Assembly: GCA_043803405.1 (NCBI GenBank)
Contig: JAZDKB010000010.1
Location: forward strand, 32,001 to 96,000
Direction: 5' to 3'
DNA: 64,000 bases
From: Spirochaetota bacterium
GTDB taxonomy: Bacteria; Spirochaetota; UBA4802; JAFGDQ01
Shown: in pieces, positions 7,701 through 17,206 of the stretch
Numbering within the stretch: position 1 is the first letter of the stretch
Layout: each line of letters opens with the position of its first letter
Position numbers and translations under genes: made by a program
Notes under the pieces: model-generated
The model's input: the letters and a program-made list of their open reading frames with translations, nothing else
Database searches by the model: none
Told to the model about the DNA's origin: nothing

Positions 7701-8022
7701 GGCCGAGATTGCAGATGAACTCGGAGTAAGCATTGAATTTTTAAACAATCTGGTACGCCAGTTCATCGGTAACTTCGAGAATTATTTTTCTCTGATATCT
7801 GAAAGCGTAAAAACATATAATTTTGACGTAATCTACGCCGAAGCCCACAAAATGAAAGGAACTGCCTCTAATTTAAGGCTCAACAAACTGGCCGATTATT
7901 TTTCAAAGATGGAAGCAAACGCCAGAAATAAAGACCATGGAGATTACGGAGCATTATTAAATTTAATTAAAGAAGAAATTAAGATATTAAGAACTGACTT
8001 TATAAATCATTCGGAGCTTTAA
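4783..8022 (+). CDS. Cytoplasmic hybrid histidine kinase (3 PAS, HisKA, HATPase, REC, Hpt)
   Basis: PAS/PAC repeats, FLANMSHEIRTPLN, NLISNAIKFT, GGTGLGL, LVAEDN...LMDVNMPVMDG, AHKMKGTASNL (Hpt). Confidence 0.92.
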   Translation: MKKMQLNAEQKSSGKKAGFDKKPAKPRNKIKTTHKNAPAEKKSAIHNDILSTLIAQAHEMVMITGLDGTIEYVNPYFEKITGYDKSEVLGKNPRILKSGPHDPYLYKELWTTITKGKNWRGILINKKKDGSLYSEEADIFPIKDTNGKIIKYASISHDISERKKAEEYILQQNKFFNNMIEAFTYPVYVIDVHTGGILVANTAAKSQNITNGMPHEKIHYGLKLLSGKSAKESLLEKIKKTKEPVFMEYTINDNKGNPIFRELYGYPIFDAQGNVIQIIEYIMDITDRKKSQEELVKLSQAVEQSLNIVMITDKYGVIEYVNPKFTETTGYSFQEVIGEKASSFGKISPEEKGNFWDILKKDGEWRGEFHNKKKNGEYYWEFASIYSIKNYQNVVTHYIKDAVNISKRKLAEDELKAAKEKAELANRFKSEFLANMSHEIRTPLNSILGFIELLLTTELDRQQKDYFETIKDSSRVLLGIIEDILDFSKIESGKLEIDNIKFYLKHELEPVVEMFVARADEKNIELLYFIDPSLPEYIFGDPLRIKQVLNNLISNAIKFTPEKGKIFVEIKLLELRDNLCRITFSVSDNGIGIPESKQKKIFEAFFQADSSVSRNYGGTGLGLAISRHLVHLMGGELQLESRVAEGSRFYFDLAFTEFSGLDIFKRDYDFRDVKCFLFKKKYNDKMQLYNIERYLKAFNIEVGTFSSLEEFSRPDHNLKTIIFTEYSIHTRDEISGIQHALPDIPIIMVANRLEKEFANLIVNKITKIIYKPVYASKIIGAIIEILFNEKQKPYADAIDEKAGRPFFSADALVAEDNAINQKLITLMLKEIGIKADIAKNGTEAVEKFIKGKYDIILMDVNMPVMDGIQATAEILKIEKSNEKQHTPIVALTAKSIKGDREIIINAGMDDYLSKPISINKLCGTIYPFLKHKQTNLSPDSSATQNQENQTQQAISQKTEQPAFLQTNNVAYDLAEIADELGVSIEFLNNLVRQFIGNFENYFSLISESVKTYNFDVIYAEAHKMKGTASNLRLNKLADYFSKMEANARNKDHGDYGALLNLIKEEIKILRTDFINHSEL

Positions 8023-8025
8023 AAT

Positions 8026-9066
8026 ATGTTCACAGGACTACAGGGCATTTCCATAGATGATGAAAAAATAAATCTCATGCTTGTTGAAGAACTTGCTGTT
8101 AAAGTAGGGCTTAACATAAAAAGCTTTATTGATCCCGTAGGCGCTATTGACTTTATAAAAAACAATAATATTGATATAGCATTTGTCGATTATCTAATGC
8201 CGCAGATGAACGGCATTGAAGTTGTAAAAAATATAAGAAAATTTCATCCTGACATACCGATTATTATGATCACTTCGATGGGAGGCGACGAGCAGTTAAA
8301 ACTTTCCGCTATAGAAGCCGGCGCTACGGAATTTTTGCTTAAACCGCTCAGGGGCTCGGAATTTATTGCACGCATTACAAATTTATCCAATCTGAGAAAA
8401 TACCAGCTCCTGTTAAAGAACAAAGCCCTTCTTCTGGAAGATGAAGTTAAAGACGCCACTCAAAATTTAAAGAACAGGGAGTTTGAAACATTAATTGTTC
8501 TGGGCAATGTCGCAGAATATAAAGATCCGGAAACAGGCAATCATGTTTCAAGAGTAGCACATTATTCGCGAATGCTTGCGATGTTATTGAATGAAAGCGA
8601 AGAAAATCAGGAAAATCTTTTTAACGCTTCCCCGCTTCACGACGTAGGCAAAATCGGCATTCGTGATTCAATTCTTAATAAACCCGGCAAACTTACTCAG
8701 GACGAATGGGAAATAATGAAAACTCATTCAACAATAGGATATGAAATTCTTAAGAGTACTGAAAGCCCTTTCCTGAAATCCGGCGCAGTAATCGCAAAGA
8801 TGCATCACGAAAAATTTGACGGTACCGGATATCCGAACGGGTTAAGAGGAAGCCAGATCCACCTGTTCGGCAGGATAGTAGCGGTTGCGGATGTGTTTGA
8901 CGCGCTTATGACGCGGAGGCCGTATAAGGAACCGTGGCCTTTTGAGAAAGCTATTGAATTGCTTTTTGAAGAAAAAGGAAAGCATTTCGATCCGGATATT
9001 GTTGATCTTTTTTTAAATAATCTCAACAGGGTTAAAAAAATATCAAATATTTTTAAAGATATCTAA
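8026..9066 (+). CDS. Response regulator with HD-GYP c-di-GMP phosphodiesterase domain (RpfG family)
   Basis: REC (IDDE...FVDYLMP), LHDVGKIG, HHEKFDGTGYP; 3 bp downstream of the hybrid kinase. Confidence 0.92.
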   Translation: MFTGLQGISIDDEKINLMLVEELAVKVGLNIKSFIDPVGAIDFIKNNNIDIAFVDYLMPQMNGIEVVKNIRKFHPDIPIIMITSMGGDEQLKLSAIEAGATEFLLKPLRGSEFIARITNLSNLRKYQLLLKNKALLLEDEVKDATQNLKNREFETLIVLGNVAEYKDPETGNHVSRVAHYSRMLAMLLNESEENQENLFNASPLHDVGKIGIRDSILNKPGKLTQDEWEIMKTHSTIGYEILKSTESPFLKSGAVIAKMHHEKFDGTGYPNGLRGSQIHLFGRIVAVADVFDALMTRRPYKEPWPFEKAIELLFEEKGKHFDPDIVDLFLNNLNRVKKISNIFKDI

Positions 9067-9209
9067 TTGATTTATTTTTTGTTTTACAAATTATTTATAT
9101 TAATTATAAAAACCTCCAGTATCTTTTACAGCTAAAGTTCCTTTACAAAAAAATAATCCTTTAAGTCCGCAAAAAAATATACTTTATAAGTAAACACTTG
9201 AGGAGTTTA

Positions 9210-9956
9210 ATGAAAAGTAACAGATGGTATTTAATAATTACAGTTGTTTTACTTTTATTTTCCGCGATCTTTTATCTTATTCAGATTTCTATATTCCACA
9301 AGACAGAAGATACATTCTTTTATCTGTTGCAGGATCTATCATTTGTCCCGGTTCAGGTTTTGCTTGTTACTCTGATTCTGGACAGACTACTTAAAAAACG
9401 CGAAAAAAATTCCTTTCTGAATAAATTAAACATGGTTATCGGAGTATTTTATAATGATATCGGGAACAGGCTTCTCGAATTATTCGGCAAATTTGCCCTA
9501 AACAATGAGAGCATAAGCTCCCAGCTCAGGATATCAAACGAATGGAAAGAAAAAGATTTCAGGAATAAAATAAACGAATTCAGAATTCATCCTGAGGATA
9601 TTAATCCCGAAAGCGAAGGATTATACTCCCTGAAAAAATTTTTAACGGAAAAAAATCAGGGACTGTTAAACCTGCTCGCCAATCCGAACCTTCTTGAACA
9701 CGATACTTTTACAAATTTACTCTGGGCTGTGTTCCATCTTGCGGATGAACTGATGCACAGAGAAAAATTTGACAACCTGCCGCAAAGCGACCTTAATCAT
9801 CTTAGAGGCGACCTGGTGAGAGCTTATCAGCTTATAGTTCTTGAATGGCTATCTTACATGAAGCACTTAAAAAAAGATTATCCGTATCTTTTCTCAATAG
9901 CTGTGCGGACAAATCCGTTTAATCCCGATGCAGAAATAACCGTAAAGCAGCCGTAA
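9210..9956 (+). CDS. Conserved hypothetical membrane protein
   Basis: Two N-terminal TM helices; ATG at 9210 preceded by GAGGAG (ORF track starts at TTG 9198). Confidence 0.7.
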   Translation: MKSNRWYLIITVVLLLFSAIFYLIQISIFHKTEDTFFYLLQDLSFVPVQVLLVTLILDRLLKKREKNSFLNKLNMVIGVFYNDIGNRLLELFGKFALNNESISSQLRISNEWKEKDFRNKINEFRIHPEDINPESEGLYSLKKFLTEKNQGLLNLLANPNLLEHDTFTNLLWAVFHLADELMHREKFDNLPQSDLNHLRGDLVRAYQLIVLEWLSYMKHLKKDYPYLFSIAVRTNPFNPDAEITVKQP

Positions 9957-9957
9957 A

Positions 9958-10491
9958 TTATAGCATTTTAAAAAATATTACTTTCCCGTCGCCCGGATAA
10001 TAAAAATCCGGAAAATACGCTCCTTTTTTGTATCCGCACGATTTGTAAAATTTCCTGGTAGGAAGATACTGTTTTCTTGATGAAGTTTCGGAATATATTT
10101 GCAGGCCGCCGGACTGCTTTATACTGTCTTCAGTCATGGACAAAAGGATTCTGCCTATGCCGTTTCCCTGCTGATTCGGGCTTACAGCTATCCAGTACAG
10201 ATCGTAACTGGCCTTTGTAAGCGGGATAAGCCCATAACATGTATAACCAATGAGACTGCCTTCAATTTCTGCAAAGATGAACTCGTATGTTGATCTCTTA
10301 CCGAGCGAAAGCTTTTCTTCAATAAGCTCAATAGCGACTATCAATTCTTCATCCGAAAAAAAACCAGTGAGTCTTAATAGTTTGCGTACATTAATACGGT
10401 CTTCTTTTCTCGGTTCATTTCGAAAATCGATTGGCAATGAGGCCGGACTTTGATTGTTTTGTTCAATTTTTAAACGACTCATAATACTCAA
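9958..10491 (-). CDS. GNAT family N-acetyltransferase
   Basis: Acetyl-CoA motif A YWIAVSPNQQGNGIG, C-terminal FY..CGY motif; last gene of the KamA/ATP-grasp operon. Confidence 0.88.
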   Translation of the reverse strand: MSIMSRLKIEQNNQSPASLPIDFRNEPRKEDRINVRKLLRLTGFFSDEELIVAIELIEEKLSLGKRSTYEFIFAEIEGSLIGYTCYGLIPLTKASYDLYWIAVSPNQQGNGIGRILLSMTEDSIKQSGGLQIYSETSSRKQYLPTRKFYKSCGYKKGAYFPDFYYPGDGKVIFFKML

Positions 10492-10547
10492 TAATTTTTT
10501 TATTCGATTTTTATTCTTCTGCCAATATATCAGTAAAACAATATGTT

Positions 10548-12584
10548 TTAAATCCCAAGTATTCGCTGGGTTACATCGTCAAATGTCAGTCCAATTTTCC
10601 TTGCTGCTGCCATAAATCCGGCATCGGAGGCAAGACACGGGTTAGCATTAACCTCCAGTACCCACGGCTTCCCCTCGGCATCTACCCGAAAATCAACACG
10701 GGCATAGCCCTTAAGCCCGAACATGTCCCAGCACTTAAGCGCATCAATACTGAGTAATCTCAGCAAACGCTTATCATTTTTCTTAAAATCATAACTGCGA
10801 ATAGTATTTCTGTATTCAAACGAATCCTCTTCCCACTTCGCTTTATAATTTACTATCCGCGGTTTATCTTCCGGGTAATCCTTAAAAATAATCTCGGCAT
10901 GAGGCAAAACCTCAGGACCGTCCATACCGTCAAGAATCGCGATGTTAAACTCACGGCCGTCAATATAAAACTCGGCAAAACATTCTGTTTTATATCCGGA
11001 AGCAATCTTTCTAAAAATACTTTTATCTGTTTTACCGGTTATTTTTACCAGGGAATTCTCATTAATACCGATCGAAGCATGATCGAACAGGGATTTTATT
11101 ATATATGTTCCCTTGGGCAATTTTACTTTTTCGGCTTTAAATATTGAAAAATATTGAGGGGTAGAAATCCCGCTTTGCTTCATTATTTGCTTAGCCAGCA
11201 TTTTATTTCCTGTCATGGCTATTGCGTCTGACCCGGAACCCGTATAATCAAAAGATAAAGACTCAAGAACAGCAGGCGCAATTATCATAAGCCTGTCATG
11301 CCCGTCAACAGACTCAACCAGATTAAATACTTTTACAGGCTTTATTTGTAATAAGGATTTTTTTAGTTTATCAATATCAAGAGTCAACTCGATATTTACC
11401 GGTTCATAACCTAAACGTTTAACCGAAGCCGCAATCTCTTCCGCCTGTACCAAAACATCCTTTTCATCAGGAGATGCGTTTCCAGGCACGTGTTGATGTA
11501 AAATCACAATTTTTTTTAAATTAGTTTTTTTTTTGGCAGGTTTGGGAGTTTTATTATTTATAATTGAAGATATGTTTATTTCTTTTACCTTCTGAGGAGC
11601 AAACTCAAGCAATCCATAGCGTTTCAAAGCGGAATTGACGATAGAGCCTATAAGCGTAATATAAGGTATGCCTGCTTTTGTGCAGATTATAGGCAGATCG
11701 GAATGCTCAGGATGAAGCCCTGCAAGCGGATTTACTTCAATAAAGTTAGGTTTGCCTGCGCTATCGCATCTTATGTCTACCCTGCCCGCATCAAAGCACC
11801 CTAGCCCCCTCCACGCGTCCAGAGCCAGCTCTTCAGCAGCCTTTGCAGTCTCATCATCGGCTAAAGTATATGTAACCAGCTCCTCGCAATTCTCCTTGTT
11901 CGAAAACGAATAGACTCCGCTTTCTGCATTTTCGTGCAGTATTACTTCAAGGACGCCGGCAGAATAAGCTTCCCTGCCTGTGCCGATTATCCCAACGGTA
12001 AATTCGCGTCCAGGTAAATAGGATTCCACCAGCACAGGCTGATTATACCGTGCGAGAAGCCCTGAACAGACTTCAACAAGTGTTTTTTTATCTATTATTA
12101 CTGATGCAGCATTAATACCCTTACCTGTGCCTTCTGCATAAGGCTTGGCAAACATAGGGTAATTAAATCCGATTGACTCAATTTCGCTAACTGAGTTGAC
12201 AAGCTGAAATTCGGGAGTAGCGATCCCCAGATCGCGTATAACGCGTTTTGTAAGATCTTTATTTAACGAGAGTCCCATTATACAGGGATCGGAGAATGTA
12301 TACGGAATCCTGTAAGCATCGCACACGGCCGGCACCTGTGCTTCGCGCCCTATGCCATAAACTCCTTCTGCGATGTTAAACACAATATCCCAGCGTTTGC
12401 CTTCAGTAAGATTCGGGACAAGCTCTGCGATATTGCCTATGCGTTCGGTTTCAAAACCCAAATCATTAAGCGTTTTCTCAATAGCATCAACCGTTTCGCC
12501 GAAATCAAACTCGGCAACATCCTCTTCGGAGAATCCAAGATTTCGGTAATAATCCCTTAAATCATAGGTAAGGCCAATCAGCAT
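10548..12584 (-). CDS. Fused tandem ATP-grasp amide ligase (two D-Ala-D-Ala-ligase-like domains)
   Basis: Domain 1: KP..EGTGKG, E.YLPGREF, RVD, IEVNP. Lys/Asn-rich linker. Domain 2: E.YIDGREF, YARVDFR, LEVNANP. Confidence 0.88.
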   Translation of the reverse strand: MLIGLTYDLRDYYRNLGFSEEDVAEFDFGETVDAIEKTLNDLGFETERIGNIAELVPNLTEGKRWDIVFNIAEGVYGIGREAQVPAVCDAYRIPYTFSDPCIMGLSLNKDLTKRVIRDLGIATPEFQLVNSVSEIESIGFNYPMFAKPYAEGTGKGINAASVIIDKKTLVEVCSGLLARYNQPVLVESYLPGREFTVGIIGTGREAYSAGVLEVILHENAESGVYSFSNKENCEELVTYTLADDETAKAAEELALDAWRGLGCFDAGRVDIRCDSAGKPNFIEVNPLAGLHPEHSDLPIICTKAGIPYITLIGSIVNSALKRYGLLEFAPQKVKEINISSIINNKTPKPAKKKTNLKKIVILHQHVPGNASPDEKDVLVQAEEIAASVKRLGYEPVNIELTLDIDKLKKSLLQIKPVKVFNLVESVDGHDRLMIIAPAVLESLSFDYTGSGSDAIAMTGNKMLAKQIMKQSGISTPQYFSIFKAEKVKLPKGTYIIKSLFDHASIGINENSLVKITGKTDKSIFRKIASGYKTECFAEFYIDGREFNIAILDGMDGPEVLPHAEIIFKDYPEDKPRIVNYKAKWEEDSFEYRNTIRSYDFKKNDKRLLRLLSIDALKCWDMFGLKGYARVDFRVDAEGKPWVLEVNANPCLASDAGFMAAARKIGLTFDDVTQRILGI

Positions 12585-12595
12585 TTATAGTCCTG

Positions 12596-13921
12596 TTACT
12601 CGGCAGAGCATGTATCTGGATAGGTGAATATTTTGTCCTCGTAGTTCTTAAGAACAACTGATGAACCATCGCGTCCCTGATAATATCCCGGCTGAAGCGG
12701 AATTTTTCCTCCGCCGCCTGGTGCGTCGATCACATAATTAGGGACTGCAAAACCTGTTGTATGGCCGCGAAGCCCCTTAATAATTTCAATGCCCTTCTCA
12801 ACCGGAGTTCTGAAATGGGAAGATCCCGATATAGGATCACATTGATATAAATAGTACGGACGCACTCTGGCCATTAAAAGCTTATGATAAAGAGATTTCA
12901 TGGTATCAATATTGTCATTTACCCCTTTTAAAAGCACTGTCTGGCTTCCAAGCGGAATACCGGCATTTGAAAGCCTGCTGCAAGCGGTTTCCGTTTCAGG
13001 AGTAATCTCCTCAGGATGAGTAAAATGAATATTCATCCATAACGGATGATATTTCTTAAGCATGTTAACCAGATGAGGCGTAATCCTCTGCGGAAGCACA
13101 ACAGGAACCTTAGTGCCGATTCTGATTATTTCAACATGCTGAATGGTTCTGAGAGATGAAAGCAACCATTCAAGCGATTCATCCGAAAGTGTAAGCGGAT
13201 CCCCGCCCGAAATGAGCACATCCCTTATTTCTTTGTGCGATTCAATATATGCAATTGCCATCTCCCAGTGCTTTGTGTTAATAATATTTGAACGGGAGTG
13301 GCCCACCATCCTGGAGCGTGTGCAATATCTGCAATATGTTGAGCAGAAGTCCGTTACAAGGAAAAGCACTCTGTCCGGATATCTGTGAACAAGCCCGGGT
13401 ACAGGGCTGTCGTTTTCTTCATGCAAAGGATCATCCGATTCTCCTTCAGCGCGCTTTAATTCAGCAGCTACAGGAATAACACATCTGCGTAAAGGATGAG
13501 AAGCATCGTCCCTGTCAATCAGACTGGCATAATAAGGTGTAATCGACAAAGGGAGCATTCCATTTGAATTCTCAAGCGCATCTTTTTCTTCTTCAGACAG
13601 CCTGAAAATGAGCGATAATTCGCTGCCCGTTTTTATCCTGTTCTGGAGCTGCCAGCGCCAGTCGTTCCATTGCTCTTTGCCAATGTTAGGATAATGACTT
13701 TTTCTAAAAAGATTGGTTCTGGCTGATGATGCATTTCTGGTTGGAAATTTTTCTTTTAAAACATAAGGAGATAATAATGGAGCTGTAAATAATTCAGATG
13801 TTACAGTACTACTGGAAGGAGGTTCATCTGAATCGGAATATTCCTCTGCGGCATTTGTGACAATGTTTGAAGTGTCTTTAACCGCATTTGAGGAAGATAT
13901 AGATAATCTTTGATGCTGCAT
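12596..13921 (-). CDS. KamA family radical SAM/PLP aminomutase (lysine 2,3-aminomutase type)
   Basis: WNDWRWQ, HRYPDR, CSTYCRYCTR (CxxxCxxC), SGGDPL, YQCD, IDAPGGGGK (PLP lysine). Confidence 0.92.
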   Translation of the reverse strand: MQHQRLSISSSNAVKDTSNIVTNAAEEYSDSDEPPSSSTVTSELFTAPLLSPYVLKEKFPTRNASSARTNLFRKSHYPNIGKEQWNDWRWQLQNRIKTGSELSLIFRLSEEEKDALENSNGMLPLSITPYYASLIDRDDASHPLRRCVIPVAAELKRAEGESDDPLHEENDSPVPGLVHRYPDRVLFLVTDFCSTYCRYCTRSRMVGHSRSNIINTKHWEMAIAYIESHKEIRDVLISGGDPLTLSDESLEWLLSSLRTIQHVEIIRIGTKVPVVLPQRITPHLVNMLKKYHPLWMNIHFTHPEEITPETETACSRLSNAGIPLGSQTVLLKGVNDNIDTMKSLYHKLLMARVRPYYLYQCDPISGSSHFRTPVEKGIEIIKGLRGHTTGFAVPNYVIDAPGGGGKIPLQPGYYQGRDGSSVVLKNYEDKIFTYPDTCSAE

Positions 13922-13993
13922 GTCGCGTACCTCATTTTATAATTAACAAAGCTTACGACCTAAAAAAGGTCTAAAATATTTTTATTAAATCCG

Positions 13994-14027
13994 AGAGAGT
14001 TAAAAAATATAATACTCTCTTTGTCAA
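13994..14027 (-). promoter_or_regulatory. Candidate sigma-70 promoter with overlapping inverted-repeat operator for the KamA operon
   Basis: Minus strand TTGACA (14027-14022) followed by AGAGAGT-N13-ACTCTCT. Confidence 0.35.
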
Positions 14028-14333
14028 TAATAATACACAATTTTTTTAAAGAAAAAATTTTTTTGAATTTTACAAATAAAATCCCAACATGTTTTTCTTA
14101 TTCTTTTTTCTTTATATCGTAATCTTTTAAAAATTGTTTAATGATTTTTCTTCAGCTTTTCAATTAAAATCTATTGTCTGATTATGTCGCATATAATTAA
14201 TATGTCATCTCTTTTTTTATTATGACTAAAATTTTTTTTATTTTTCTCAAATATCTTTCAGCCATAATCCAAGACATCTGTTCTTCCGGCATCTTAAGGA
14301 TAAGCACGCTTCATTTATTATAAAATATCCGGC

Positions 14334-14933
14334 CTAAATTCTAATACCGGAAAATCCATAAAAGATAAGAGCCAGCAGAACGAAGTTCAATATTGCAATC
14401 GGAATACCCATTAATCCGGATGGAATTTCAGCAAGTTCCAGTCTATCAATAATTCCTGATATCAAAACCAGAACAAAAGTAAAAGCCAATCCGGCACCTA
14501 TCCCATGCGCAGCTGCTTCAACAAAAAGGTTAAACGAAAAAAAGCCGGATTCAATATTAAATAACGATATTGATGTCCCTAAAAAAGCGCAGTTAAAAAG
14601 CAAATAAGGAAAAAATATATTTACGGATTGGGAAATTGCGGGAAAAAATCTGTTTGCAGCTGTTTTAAAAAGCTGAACAAATATAATAATAATTAAATTA
14701 AAAATAATACATTTTAACAGAAGAAATTCAATGGTGAAAAAATGTTTTACAACAAGGGAATAAATAATAGATGTAAATATCATAACAAAAGAAAATGCAA
14801 GTCCGGCTTTGAGGGTTAATCCCGGTTTTTGAAGAAAAGAAAAGAAAGGAGGCTTCCTGACAACACGGGGCAAAAAATAATTGCTGATAAACAAGGAAAT
14901 AATCGCAGTAAAAAATAAGATTTTAATCTCCAT
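14334..14933 (-). CDS. rnfA: RnfA/RsxA-like membrane subunit (divergent)
   Basis: Six hydrophobic helices, NCAFLG, GIGAGLAF, GIIDRLELAEIP..LMGIPI, FYGFSG C-terminus. Confidence 0.7.
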   Translation of the reverse strand: MEIKILFFTAIISLFISNYFLPRVVRKPPFFSFLQKPGLTLKAGLAFSFVMIFTSIIYSLVVKHFFTIEFLLLKCIIFNLIIIIFVQLFKTAANRFFPAISQSVNIFFPYLLFNCAFLGTSISLFNIESGFFSFNLFVEAAAHGIGAGLAFTFVLVLISGIIDRLELAEIPSGLMGIPIAILNFVLLALIFYGFSGIRI

Positions 14934-14997
14934 AATAGCTTCCTAAAATTTCAATTCCTGCACATTAAGTAATCCGCCTAGATGCAATTTATACTGA

Positions 14998-15855
14998 TTA
15001 TATTATCGCGCCAAAAACACGAGGCTTTGAATATTTGTCAATTAATGGAACTGCTGCATTCATAAACAGAATAGCAAAACAAACGCCTTCTTCGAATGCC
15101 CCCACTGTACGGATTACGAATGTAAATATTCCGCATCCAATGCCGAATATTAACATGCCTTTCTTTGTTACAGGCGATGTTACCATATCCGTTGCCATAA
15201 AAAATGCTCCAAGGAAAAGACCGGCAGAAAAAAAATGAATCGTGATAATCCTTAACGAAATCTCATTTCCTGAAATAATATTATAAAGAATTACAATAAT
15301 AAAAAAAGATCCAAGGTAGCTGGCAGGGATATGCCAGCTTATTATTTTATTGATCATAAGAAAAACTGCGCCTATTAAAAGCAATATTAAGGGAATTATC
15401 CCTATTTCCTGGTTAACGGCCATTTCCGCAGGCCATAAAGCTATTAATAAGGCTATTGCAGCCAAAGCTGGATTAAATATATTAAAACCCAGTCCGCCGA
15501 ACGCCTGTTTAACAATTATTATTGCAAAAAAAGAAGCAATTGCCGTCATCCAAACAGGCAGACCGTGAGGAACGTTCATGGCAATCAGCAATCCGGTAAT
15601 CACTGCAGAACCGTCCGGAATACTCACTTTTTTATAAATAATTGCCTGATACAAAAATTCGATGATTGCTGCAGAAAATACTGATACTGCCAGAAGAATC
15701 AAATAACTAATACCTGACAAATAAATTGTATAAACGTTCGAAGGCAAAAGAGCCAATACGACAAACCACATGATCTTTCCGATGGATTGGCAGTCTCTGA
15801 TGTGAGGCGAGTCCGAATTTATTAATTTTGATATTGATTTTTCTTTTTCGGTCAT
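14998..15855 (-). CDS. rnfD: RnfD/RsxD-like membrane subunit (short, internal deletion)
   Basis: SPHIR, DGSAVITGLL, KQAFGGLGFNIFNPA, FFMATDMVTSP, EGVCFAILFMN. Confidence 0.82.
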   Translation of the reverse strand: MTEKEKSISKLINSDSPHIRDCQSIGKIMWFVVLALLPSNVYTIYLSGISYLILLAVSVFSAAIIEFLYQAIIYKKVSIPDGSAVITGLLIAMNVPHGLPVWMTAIASFFAIIIVKQAFGGLGFNIFNPALAAIALLIALWPAEMAVNQEIGIIPLILLLIGAVFLMINKIISWHIPASYLGSFFIIVILYNIISGNEISLRIITIHFFSAGLFLGAFFMATDMVTSPVTKKGMLIFGIGCGIFTFVIRTVGAFEEGVCFAILFMNAAVPLIDKYSKPRVFGAII

Positions 15856-15883
15856 CGGTAATTTAATTATATTTAAAATTTTG

Positions 15884-17206
15884 CTAATTATTGCTCTGAA
15901 TGGTTTCCTGGGCAGTCTTTATCAGACTGCTGATTGGCCTTTTCGCAGGGCACACAAATGAACACGAACCGCATTTTATGCAGTCGAAAATATTTTGCTT
16001 CTCAAGTAAATCAAATCTGGATTTGAGTGCGGCCTGCCCAAGATCGCCCGGAACAAGCCGGGACGGGCATGCCGCTGTGCAACGTCCGCACCTAATACAT
16101 GGTCCATAGCTTTCCCTATGGACTTCCGCTTTTGAAAGAAATACGATACCTGTTGTCCCTTTTAATACAGGCATATCATAGCCAGATACTGAAAAACCGC
16201 GCATCGGCCCGCCCATAATTATTTTTGCAGGCTCTTCTTTACAGCCTCCGCATTCTTCGATTATATCGCAAATTCTCGTACCTATTCTGAGTTTATAATT
16301 TCCGGGTTTATTGATAATTTTCCCGGTTACGGTTACAAACCTCTCGAAAAGAGGTTTACCGAATACACAAGCATCTCTTATCGCAAAAACAGTTGCTGCA
16401 TTAAGCACAACAATTCCGCTGTCTGCAGGTTGTTTACCGGAAGGAATTTCCATTTTAAGTATGCTGCTAATAAGCTGTCTTTCAGAACCCTGAGGATATT
16501 TTGTTTTTAAAAGAACAATCTTAATGTTTTCTTTTGCAGAATTTTTATCCAGAATATCTTTCAATGCCTGAACAGCTTCCGGTTTGTTGTTTTCTATCCC
16601 GAAAAAAGCATTATTAATGCCAAGAATTTTTAAAACAATTTTAATACCTTCTATAATCTCTTCAGGATAAACTTTTATCAACATTTCATCCGCTGTGAGA
16701 TAAGGCTCCGATTCAGCTCCATTGATTAATAAATATTCTGTTTTTTTACTTTTATGCGAAGATAATTTAACGCTAGTCGGGAATGCTTCACCGCCCATGC
16801 CTACTATTCCAGCTTCTCTGATTCTTTCGATTAAAGATTCTTTTTTTAAATCCTGCCATGCAGTCTTTTCGCGTTTTTTACCGGATGTATTAAACCTGCC
16901 ATCGGATTCAATCATTATGCATTTGCATTTCCCCTGAGAAAAAATCTGCTGTTCTGTAATAGAAATAACTTTCCCAGGTACGGACGAATGAACATTAGCG
17001 CTTAATAGTCCGTCAGCTTTTCCGATTAATTGTCCTTCCTGAATTAAATCACCGACATTTACTATAGGATAAGCCGGATTTCCGATATGCTGTTTAAGTG
17101 GTATATTGCAGATATGAGGAACAGATAAGTTGGAAAAACCCTTCCCGGAGGTAATTTTTTTCTCCGGAAAAGGATGAATTCCTCCCTTGAAAGTGTTTAA
17201 TAACAT
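15884..17206 (-). CDS. rnfC: Electron transport complex subunit RnfC/RsxC
   Basis: FKGGIHP, QHIGNPA, GIVGMGG..FPT, EPYLTAD, YPQGSE, CIRCGRC..ACP and CIKCGSC..VCP ferredoxin motifs. Confidence 0.92.
   Translation of the reverse strand: MLLNTFKGGIHPFPEKKITSGKGFSNLSVPHICNIPLKQHIGNPAYPIVNVGDLIQEGQLIGKADGLLSANVHSSVPGKVISITEQQIFSQGKCKCIMIESDGRFNTSGKKREKTAWQDLKKESLIERIREAGIVGMGGEAFPTSVKLSSHKSKKTEYLLINGAESEPYLTADEMLIKVYPEEIIEGIKIVLKILGINNAFFGIENNKPEAVQALKDILDKNSAKENIKIVLLKTKYPQGSERQLISSILKMEIPSGKQPADSGIVVLNAATVFAIRDACVFGKPLFERFVTVTGKIINKPGNYKLRIGTRICDIIEECGGCKEEPAKIIMGGPMRGFSVSGYDMPVLKGTTGIVFLSKAEVHRESYGPCIRCGRCTAACPSRLVPGDLGQAALKSRFDLLEKQNIFDCIKCGSCSFVCPAKRPISSLIKTAQETIQSNN

Follow-up and report, generated by a model that had tools for sequence, protein, structure and literature searches.

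An operon on the minus strand of a 64,000-nucleotide stretch of DNA from a Spirochaetota bacterium (the window: contig JAZDKB010000010.1, positions 32,001 to 96,000) encodes a KamA-type aminomutase, a protein in which two ATP-grasp ligase domains of the D-Ala-D-Ala ligase (Ddl) fold, LigA and LigB, are fused, and a small GNAT acetyltransferase. These proteins constitute a widespread, conserved four-domain cassette built from known enzyme types. The account of its function that we favour, with a probability of roughly 0.45, is that the cassette is a stand-alone non-ribosomal small-molecule pathway, whose product would be an acetylated amide formed between beta-lysine and a polyamine-type acceptor.

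A cassette conserved across phyla

Among the best 80 of 578 aminomutase loci in the GTDB set, at least one ligase was found in 28 of the top 30, compared with 0/50 of the lower-ranked loci, and the two ligase-free loci among the top 30 both end at a contig edge. LigA was present in 27 of these 30 loci, LigB in 25 and GNAT in 23, and 22 loci held the complete four-part set; among the bacteria represented are Spirochaetota, Bacteroidota, Melainabacteria, Dependentiae, Fibrobacterota and Lentisphaerota. A metagenome set, consisting of the best 80 of 597 matches in a LigA alignment search and counted only where the flanking DNA sufficed, displayed the same arrangement, with the aminomutase upstream of LigA in 48/50 loci, LigB downstream of LigA in 53/56, GNAT in 26/33 and a GNAT-deacetylase in 14/33. 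The view that the genes form a single pathway also retained in other bacteria, put forward in an earlier note on this DNA, is thus supported by a gene-neighbourhood survey in which they were co-conserved far above chance (28/30 vs 0/50; 48/50), the four-domain cassette spanning the lineages of the top loci. That note had also described three co-oriented genes separated by 11 and 56 bp; the positions and the minus strand were re-read from the sequence and agree, and the KamA-type enzyme, the two ATP-grasp domains and the GNAT were matched by TIGR00238, PF07478 (twice) and PF00583/PF13508, respectively. The features of the operon are as follows (aa, amino acids; ORF, open reading frame).

12596..13921, minus strand: aminomutase ORF, 441 aa; predicted disordered N-terminal extension at residues 1-58; without a C-terminal Cys-rich zinc region
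10548..12584, minus strand: fused double ligase ORF, 678 aa; PF07478 matched twice
11610..12584, minus strand: LigA (ligase domain A), residues 1-325; Ddl-fold ATP-grasp
10548..11516, minus strand: LigB (ligase domain B), residues 357-678; Ddl-fold ATP-grasp
9958..10491, minus strand: small GNAT, 177 aa from TTG or 174 aa from the ATG at 10482; PF00583/PF13508
13929..13934, minus strand: Shine-Dalgarno-like sequence TGAGGT, 7 nt 5' of the aminomutase ATG
13814..13825, minus strand: E-P-P codons GAA CCT CCT TCC (Glu33-Pro34-Pro35-Ser36), with acidic residues before them; candidate translational pause

In most cassettes LigA and LigB are separate genes. Among 120 listed homologues of the fused ligase that are of similar length, 93 are LigA-LigB fusions (the window protein included), 11 join KamA to LigA, one is LigA-LigB-GNAT and 15 comprise LigA alone. 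The LigA-LigB fusion of the window is therefore real and recurrent. Of the domains, LigA shows the strongest linkage to the aminomutase. In the host phylum it occurs in 23 of 151 sampled genomes, and the aminomutase is adjacent in 18/23; all five genomes in which it is not adjacent have a KamA-type gene elsewhere, two of them containing a cassette split across contigs and three a lone LigA together with a canonical KamA. In five spirochaete genomes (L178, L183, L187, L190 and L192) LigA has neither LigB nor GNAT alongside, and in these, three of which contain no KamA other than a canonical one, LigA alone may suffice.

When neighbouring families present in at least 3 of 110 loci were considered, no further gene family proved widespread beside the cassette. 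A lineage-specific Bacteroidales neighbourhood surrounds it in 10 to 14 loci, and a sigma-54 response-regulator activator lies upstream in nine metagenome loci (including L093, L094, L105, L106, L109, L116, L124 and L141). A search of a plasmid collection returned only distant ligases (at most 30% identity) and partial GNAT matches.

Aminomutase, ligases and acetyltransferase

The aminomutase is a member of the KamA subfamily (TIGR00238, 371 bits against a cut-off of 199) and displays 55% identity over 366 aligned columns (E 2e-140) with the lysine 2,3-aminomutase of Clostridium subterminale (PDB 2A5H). The CxxxCxxC-T-R signature is present (C193, C197, C200 and R202), R202 aligning with Arg134 of 2A5H, while D362 (in YQCD), D399 and K406 (in IDAPGGGGK) align with Asp293, Asp330 and Lys337. 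Asp293 and Asp330 are what we take to be the lysine-binding aspartates, and the role of Arg134 is likewise assumed; a literature search on these residue roles yielded nothing of use. The earlier note was correct in placing both lysine-site aspartates in the protein (D362 and D399), but the second motif reads VIDAPGGGGK rather than VDAPGGGGK. Its assignment of the enzyme as a lysine-type aminomutase is upheld by the retention of D362, D399 and R202 and by TIGR03820, the lysine 2,3-aminomutase equivalog, being the best model; judged by these residues, lysine is the most likely substrate. It should be emphasized, however, that the TIGR03820 score of 511 is below the cut-off of 525, with 360 of 417 positions matched; three other members of the cassette clade score 471-491 and a true AblA 739. 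The glutamate, arginine and EpmB models (TIGR04368, TIGR04468 and TIGR03821) all failed, at 449 against 650, 424 against 600 and 270 against 369, respectively. The C-terminal Cys-rich region is missing, since only 35 residues follow PGGGGK compared with 60-90 in 49 canonical loci, and the LAM_C model is matched at positions 1-56 of 127.

It could be argued that the cassette follows the same logic with another basic substrate, such as ornithine, arginine or a lysine derivative, placing a different beta-amino acid in the product. In keeping with this proposal are the sub-threshold TIGR03820 score, a separate clade in the tree described below, and clade-specific changes near the active site, in which R is replaced by K271, N by S326 and L by P363, the last adjoining D362. 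Against it, the unmatched part of TIGR03820 corresponds to the missing tail, the arginine and glutamate models score lower, and three genomes pair LigA with a canonical long-tailed KamA only. We thus regard a substrate other than lysine as quite improbable.

The phylogenetic comparison with KamA and AblA suggested in the earlier note, made here as a quick tree search of 60 rows with L201 left out, places the cassette aminomutases on a branch of their own. This branch contains the cassette enzymes, the viral copies and L066 (SH-aLRT 96), and the canonical KamA and AblA proteins group apart from it (SH-aLRT 97). Large-phage contigs from IMG/VR (L001-L004 and L006) and a 462 kb phage (L203; LR756500) encode cassette-clade aminomutases without Ddl-like ligases; on the L004 contig an R2K-type ATP-grasp gene lies two genes downstream. 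Other observations also touch on phages and on divergent members of the family. A lone, diverged LigA-like gene (37%; L169:703-1716, IMG/VR) is found among phage genes, just upstream of ORFs that by sequence reading are terminase- and portal-like. Nine cultured Pseudomonas putida phages of ~200 kb (PP496436-PP496444) carry a more distant KamA-family gene (39%) annotated as hypothetical, and another aminomutase context is seen at L197:4342-6833, where ORFs of 411 and 231 aa come after a divergent KamA-family gene (VNDLPGGGGK).

Both ligase domains are predicted as confident ATP-grasp units (mean pLDDT 92.8); the two folds match Ddl structures at 22-25% identity and are 27% identical to each other, while their ESM Atlas matches carry generic Ddl-family names only. 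Residues were compared in an alignment of 109 LigA sequences, 79 LigB sequences and the host genome's own Ddl, using Escherichia coli Ddl numbering. Both domains keep the pair of ATP lysines, the lysine of the omega loop and the R-x-D and E-x-N motifs, the Glu of E-x-N being replaced by Asp in 11/79 LigB; in the window protein the catalytic set of LigA is K109, K147, K230, R268, D270, E283 and N285, and the invariant residues of LigB include K583-W584 and N646-x-N648-P-C650. As the catalytic residues are retained, LigA and LigB both look catalytically competent.

The specificity positions of Ddl, in contrast, have been replaced. The His63 position is Glu in LigA (109/109) and also in LigB, the omega-loop Tyr216 position is Glu in 85/109 LigA and Trp in 79/79 LigB, and the position after the conserved Ser (Leu282) is Asp in 109/109 LigA, whereas in LigB this region consists of Ala, Ser or Gly followed by Gly, with Cys in place of Gly276. 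E25, D27, E73, E81 and D296 are the invariant acidic residues of LigA. If these positions have the roles that we assume from Ddl, among them that of the site binding the acceptor carboxylate, the LigA pocket would accommodate a cationic donor and a cationic acceptor that lacks a carboxylate.

The Ddl fold and homology raise the possibility that the ligases make an altered dipeptide for peptidoglycan, either VanA/VanC-like or containing beta-lysine. NF002378 was indeed passed (250 vs 243), although only as the sum of the two domains, and a glutamate-racemase-like gene is near three loci. TIGR01205, however, was not passed even with both domains together (196 vs 246 bits), no Van model exceeded 109 bits, the cut-offs being 495-775, and the specificity residues differ as described above. 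The host also has a canonical Ddl elsewhere in its genome (contig C26), which scores 252 bits compared with 83 and 68 for the cassette domains, and this supports two ligase domains distinct from the Ddl of the cell wall. Mur ligase and dcw genes are not recurrent neighbours, and the glutamate-racemase-like gene, in 3 of 110 loci, is the sole recurrent cell-wall gene. The peptidoglycan modification considered in the earlier note is thus not supported, and we view a cell-wall dipeptide as very improbable.

With respect to the acetyl step, the small GNAT is a close homologue of PDB 2R7H (E 2e-39), a structural-genomics entry named 'putative D-alanine N-acetyltransferase', for which no characterization was apparent among the open-access papers listed. 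The earlier description of the GNAT as shorter than and unlike AblB is accurate, as it aligns at 22 bits over 86 residues with a true 281-aa, TIGR03827-positive AblB. An optional partner of 580 aa, found in 21/110 loci, many of which are truncated loci, combines a second GNAT with a deacetylase domain, and in 6/80 metagenome loci deacetylase-GNAT and small GNAT form a triple fusion. Acetylpolyamine amidohydrolases take the first five places among the PDB matches of the deacetylase (E 1e-70 to 5e-56), with HDAC6 (3e-54) and HDAH (3e-27) ranking below them. In the host genome, genes for a pyruvoyl arginine decarboxylase, an agmatinase-like protein (identified by reading its ORF sequence) and a deoxyhypusine-synthase-like protein stand in a row on contig C15 (78582-81101), which is likely a homospermidine route; a supply of polyamine in the host is therefore likely. 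No spermidine synthase or fold-I decarboxylase was found in that genome.

The acetyltransferase and ligases might instead be envisaged as joining nothing but amino acids, into an acetylated dipeptide or tripeptide such as N-acetyl-beta-Lys-X-Y, which would be a compatible solute or storage compound resembling NAGGN that contains no polyamine. Such a peptide would fit the same co-conservation and fusion data. There is precedent in Ngg/AsnO, where acetylation and a peptide bond yield an osmolyte (PMC8070244), and in the osmoadaptive role of beta-lysine acetylation (PMC9049628), and the bulky omega-loop Trp of LigB could suit a neutral amino acid. The accessory deacetylase, however, is nearest to polyamine-specific enzymes, and LigA has its invariant Asp beside what we take to be the acceptor-carboxylate site of Ddl. 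We consider the amino-acid-only peptide unlikely, albeit a serious contender.

The E-P-P motif and the surroundings of the operon

Residues 1-58 of the aminomutase are predicted to be disordered, and among relatives this region varies freely in sequence and length with the exception of a single motif, whose consensus is E-x-x-E-P-P-[S/G/D] and which lies 5 to 30 codons past the nearest Met. In counts that covered all ORFs with a WxxWxW anchor that were not cut by a contig start, [ED]PP was present in 64/78 cassette aminomutases, compared with a mean of 7.3 and a maximum of 15 in 1000 shuffles. Glu preceded PP in 64/64 of these matches, the residue after PP was S, G or D in 61/64, and seven cassette aminomutases contained two E-P-P copies. 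The motif also occurs in 4/5 viral and 4/4 other short-tailed copies but in 0/49 canonical aminomutases, whose N-terminal extensions are much shorter. The four phage copies that keep it are L001-L004; in L006, and in L203, which matches it, the sequence is IEPS.

The codon for the first proline is biased towards CCT, a rare proline codon. After dereplication at 72% identity [EQKH]PP was retained in 30/40 sequences, and the first Pro codon was CCT in 23/30 and CCY in 28/30 of these copies; CCT was also used in 13/17 second motif copies. As background, CCT encodes 61/205 other N-terminal prolines, and it is found at 154/605 other PP pairs (25%), at 14/80 PP pairs within the first 50 codons of neighbouring genes and in 13/36 of the host genome's own EPP motifs. 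The p-values for this bias are overstated because the sequences share ancestry. Synonymous variation at the Glu and second Pro codons indicates that the motif is read as protein in frame, with the first Pro codon under an additional constraint.

The CCT bias of the first Pro codon suggests a translational pause, which is the best reading of the motif and, in our estimate, has about an even chance of being correct; a docking peptide, a degron or a nucleic-acid site are possible alternative roles. S, G and D after PP belong to the 'strong' rows of S3 Table in PMC5811046, while E before PP is outside the strong rows shown there. Selection in E. coli disfavours the frameshift-prone sequence CCC/U-C, and CadC copy number is set by the choice of proline codon (CCU/CCC) (PMC8129111), while pausing on MgtL is driven by proline and acidic residues (PMC12856214). 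The cassette motif resembles these pause elements in its proline and acidic residues and in the CCU/CCC choice, but differs from MgtL- and CadC-type elements in being located within the enzyme's own N-terminal extension rather than in a separate leader peptide. The amount of aminomutase is probably set in translation by an acidic E-P-P motif with CCU, an interpretation based on its conservation. Polyamine-sensing upstream ORFs of eukaryotes provide a precedent for negative feedback. By analogy, inhibition of elongation factor P (EF-P) by the product would give negative feedback on the aminomutase, and a loss of EF-P activity would by itself lower the amount of the enzyme.

Pairing of CCTCC with the anti-Shine-Dalgarno sequence was rejected as a general cause of the bias, the gene's own ribosome-binding site being the best partner in only 7/90 folded loci, and no RNA partner of the motif was shared among these 90 loci. 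No conserved shifted-frame product was found past the motif. A complex prediction for aminomutase residues 15-62 with the fused ligase scored 0.00, which is no verdict either way.

The cassette could instead modify a protein, either EF-P, by an ATP-grasp route that replaces EpmA, or the aminomutase itself, the Glu of its E-P-P tail acting as a built-in carrier similar to LysW. The presence of a conserved diprolyl motif on a beta-lysine-making enzyme, and the consistent Glu before PP in the [ED]PP matches, are in harmony with this proposal. The host genome contains three efp matches (C34:1719-2270, C15:220892-221437 and C8:8552-8881), one an EF-P with a PGKGG tip, one with a PGNW tip and one partial at a contig end, without EpmA. 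EpmA-length matches were also absent from all 31 genomes searched (the host and those of the 30 top loci), in which two matches were of lysyl-tRNA synthetase (LysRS) length; this set is mostly Bacteroidota, and a Bacteroides control genome was also without a match. Within the phylum, however, when the 22 cassette genomes were compared with the 20 listed of 128 cassette-free ones, an EpmA-like gene (a second, non-LysRS match, read as EpmA) coexisted with the cassette in 6/22 genomes as against 4/20 without it, indicating that the cassette is not an EpmA replacement. In addition efp is not among the families that recur beside the cassette, Lys, Gln, His and Asp are tolerated before PP, 4/5 viral copies keep the motif without an adjacent ligase, and a carrier role leaves the codon bias unexplained. 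The EF-P modification raised in the earlier note is thus not borne out by the EpmA and efp data, and we judge protein modification as a whole to be improbable.

The operon has a GC content of 41.6% in a genome of 39.1%, and the nearest named relatives are Spirochaetota metagenome-assembled genomes, the host probably being an uncultured spirochaete. The host assembly is 3.98 Mb and 94% complete. A genome-wide search identified only one KamA-like gene. AblB (TIGR03827) had no match in the operon or host genome, with a positive control detected, EpmA had none over the cut-off in the host genome, and a KamD search of the genome gave no match, nor did its positive control. The absence of known KamA contexts stated in the earlier note agrees with the lack of kamDE, epmA and efp matches, at the thresholds applied, among the window ORFs scanned (25 in one scan, a part of the total). 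An Rfam scan of window positions 8000-16000 returned nothing at gathering level, and a promoter and terminator scan gave 2 sites vs 3.6 expected. Downstream of the GNAT is a convergent gene:

9198-9956, plus strand: 252-aa protein with an N-terminal hydrophobic stretch; stop one base from the GNAT stop

Scans of Pfam and NCBIfam gave no match to this protein, and as the two stops are one base apart there is no room for a terminator between the genes. A partial Rnf-like set (RnfC-, RnfD- and RnfA/E-like by reading; 14334-17206, minus strand), the last gene of which is matched by PF02508, is located 412 bp upstream of the aminomutase.

The proposed pathway and known systems

In the pathway that we favour, leading to an acetylated beta-lysyl-polyamine, the aminomutase, whose family and residues are evident, would convert L-lysine to beta-lysine. 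LigA, to judge from its catalytic residues, would then activate beta-lysine by turning its carboxylate into an acyl phosphate, and would join it to a cationic, carboxylate-free amine, candidates for which are the side chain of beta-lysine and polyamines, putrescine and homospermidine for example. LigB, with a different specificity, would form a second amide, and the GNAT would N-acetylate the product. In the many genomes with a GNAT-acetylpolyamine-amidohydrolase partner the acetylation could be reversed, the neutral form serving as storage and the cationic form being active. The scheme of beta-lysine formation, two amides and N-acylation in the earlier note is partly supported, in that the aminomutase, two ligases and GNAT are co-conserved, while its product and lysine specificity are inferred.

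Several observations weigh against this pathway. At 22 conserved columns the aminomutase departs from canonical KamA, and it is below every equivalog cut-off, which makes another substrate possible; the acidic ligase pockets would suit beta-lysine or lysine alone as well as a polyamine. LigB and GNAT are at times missing or separated (L144, L157, L159, L178 and L190). The GNAT-deacetylase partner is not in the window operon, and three deacetylase homologues in the host genome match only the deacetylase part of that partner. Genes for polyamine synthesis or transport are not among the families recurrent beside the cassette, and spermidine synthase is not linked to it (17/22 genomes with the cassette vs 14/20 without).

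A bolder and doubtful extension is that the cassette makes a bacterial polycation of a class not described before, namely a beta-lysyl-polyamine that switches between acetylated and free forms, and that the aminomutase contains an in-frame ribosome sensor (acidic-Glu-Pro[CCU]-Pro-Ser/Gly) through which this product controls its own synthesis via EF-P or ribosome stability, the sensor enzyme having been captured by large phages.

The earlier note knew of no characterized product, and none was found in the open-access literature, the scope of our search. The cassette is apparently uncharacterized, although an earlier prediction could be contained in subscription papers, bioRxiv supplements or the 2009 amidoligase survey, which were outside that scope. 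What is added to the earlier note is that the ligases are mostly separate genes, that the zinc region is absent, that a GNAT-deacetylase is optional and that the E-P-P motif is conserved. If the proposed pathway is correct, beta-lysine would gain a fourth use in addition to its roles in fermentation, in the AblAB osmolyte and in EF-P modification, and a function would follow for two large families labelled D-Ala-D-Ala ligase and for 2R7H, an acetyltransferase that is solved but unexplained. Ligases able to take beta-amino acids and polyamines would also be of value as catalysts, and E-P-P/CCU would offer a simple, directly testable form of codon-level control within an enzyme's own N-terminus.

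Comparison with known systems indicates where the cassette stands. The C. subterminale KamA shares the cluster cysteines, Arg134, Asp293, Asp330 and Lys337; in contrast the cassette enzyme lacks the Cys-rich tail, has a long disordered extension with E-P-P and is not beside lysine-fermentation genes. The Ddl and Van ligases share the fold and the residues for ATP and acyl-phosphate catalysis, but His63/Tyr216/Leu282 of Ddl are Glu/Glu/Asp in LigA and Glu/Trp/Gly in LigB, and the cassette has two paralogues side by side. In the synthesis of pyrrolysine (PylB/PylC) and blasticidin S (BlsG/BlsI), a radical SAM enzyme rearranges a basic amino acid and an ATP-grasp amide ligase acts next; these systems differ from the cassette in enzyme families and products. 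Ngg contains an ATP-grasp domain. Ngg/AsnO is an analogue in its mode of working, as N-acetylation and a non-ribosomal peptide bond generate the small solute NAGGN (PMC8070244), but it uses other substrates and no aminomutase, and the cassette has no AsnO. In AblA/AblB, and in KamA/YodP of Bacillus subtilis, a lysine 2,3-aminomutase and a GNAT produce N-epsilon-acetyl-beta-lysine (PMC9049628). The cassette resembles AblA/AblB in combining such an aminomutase with a GNAT in one operon, but differs in its non-AblB GNAT of 174-177 aa, in the two added ATP-grasp ligases and in an aminomutase without the long tail that falls on a different branch to AblA. Judged by family models and residues, the cassette qualifies neither as AblAB, Ddl/Van or EpmAB nor as a glutamate or arginine mutase but, by analogy, may work like AblA/AblB with two ligases added, or like the NAGGN route.

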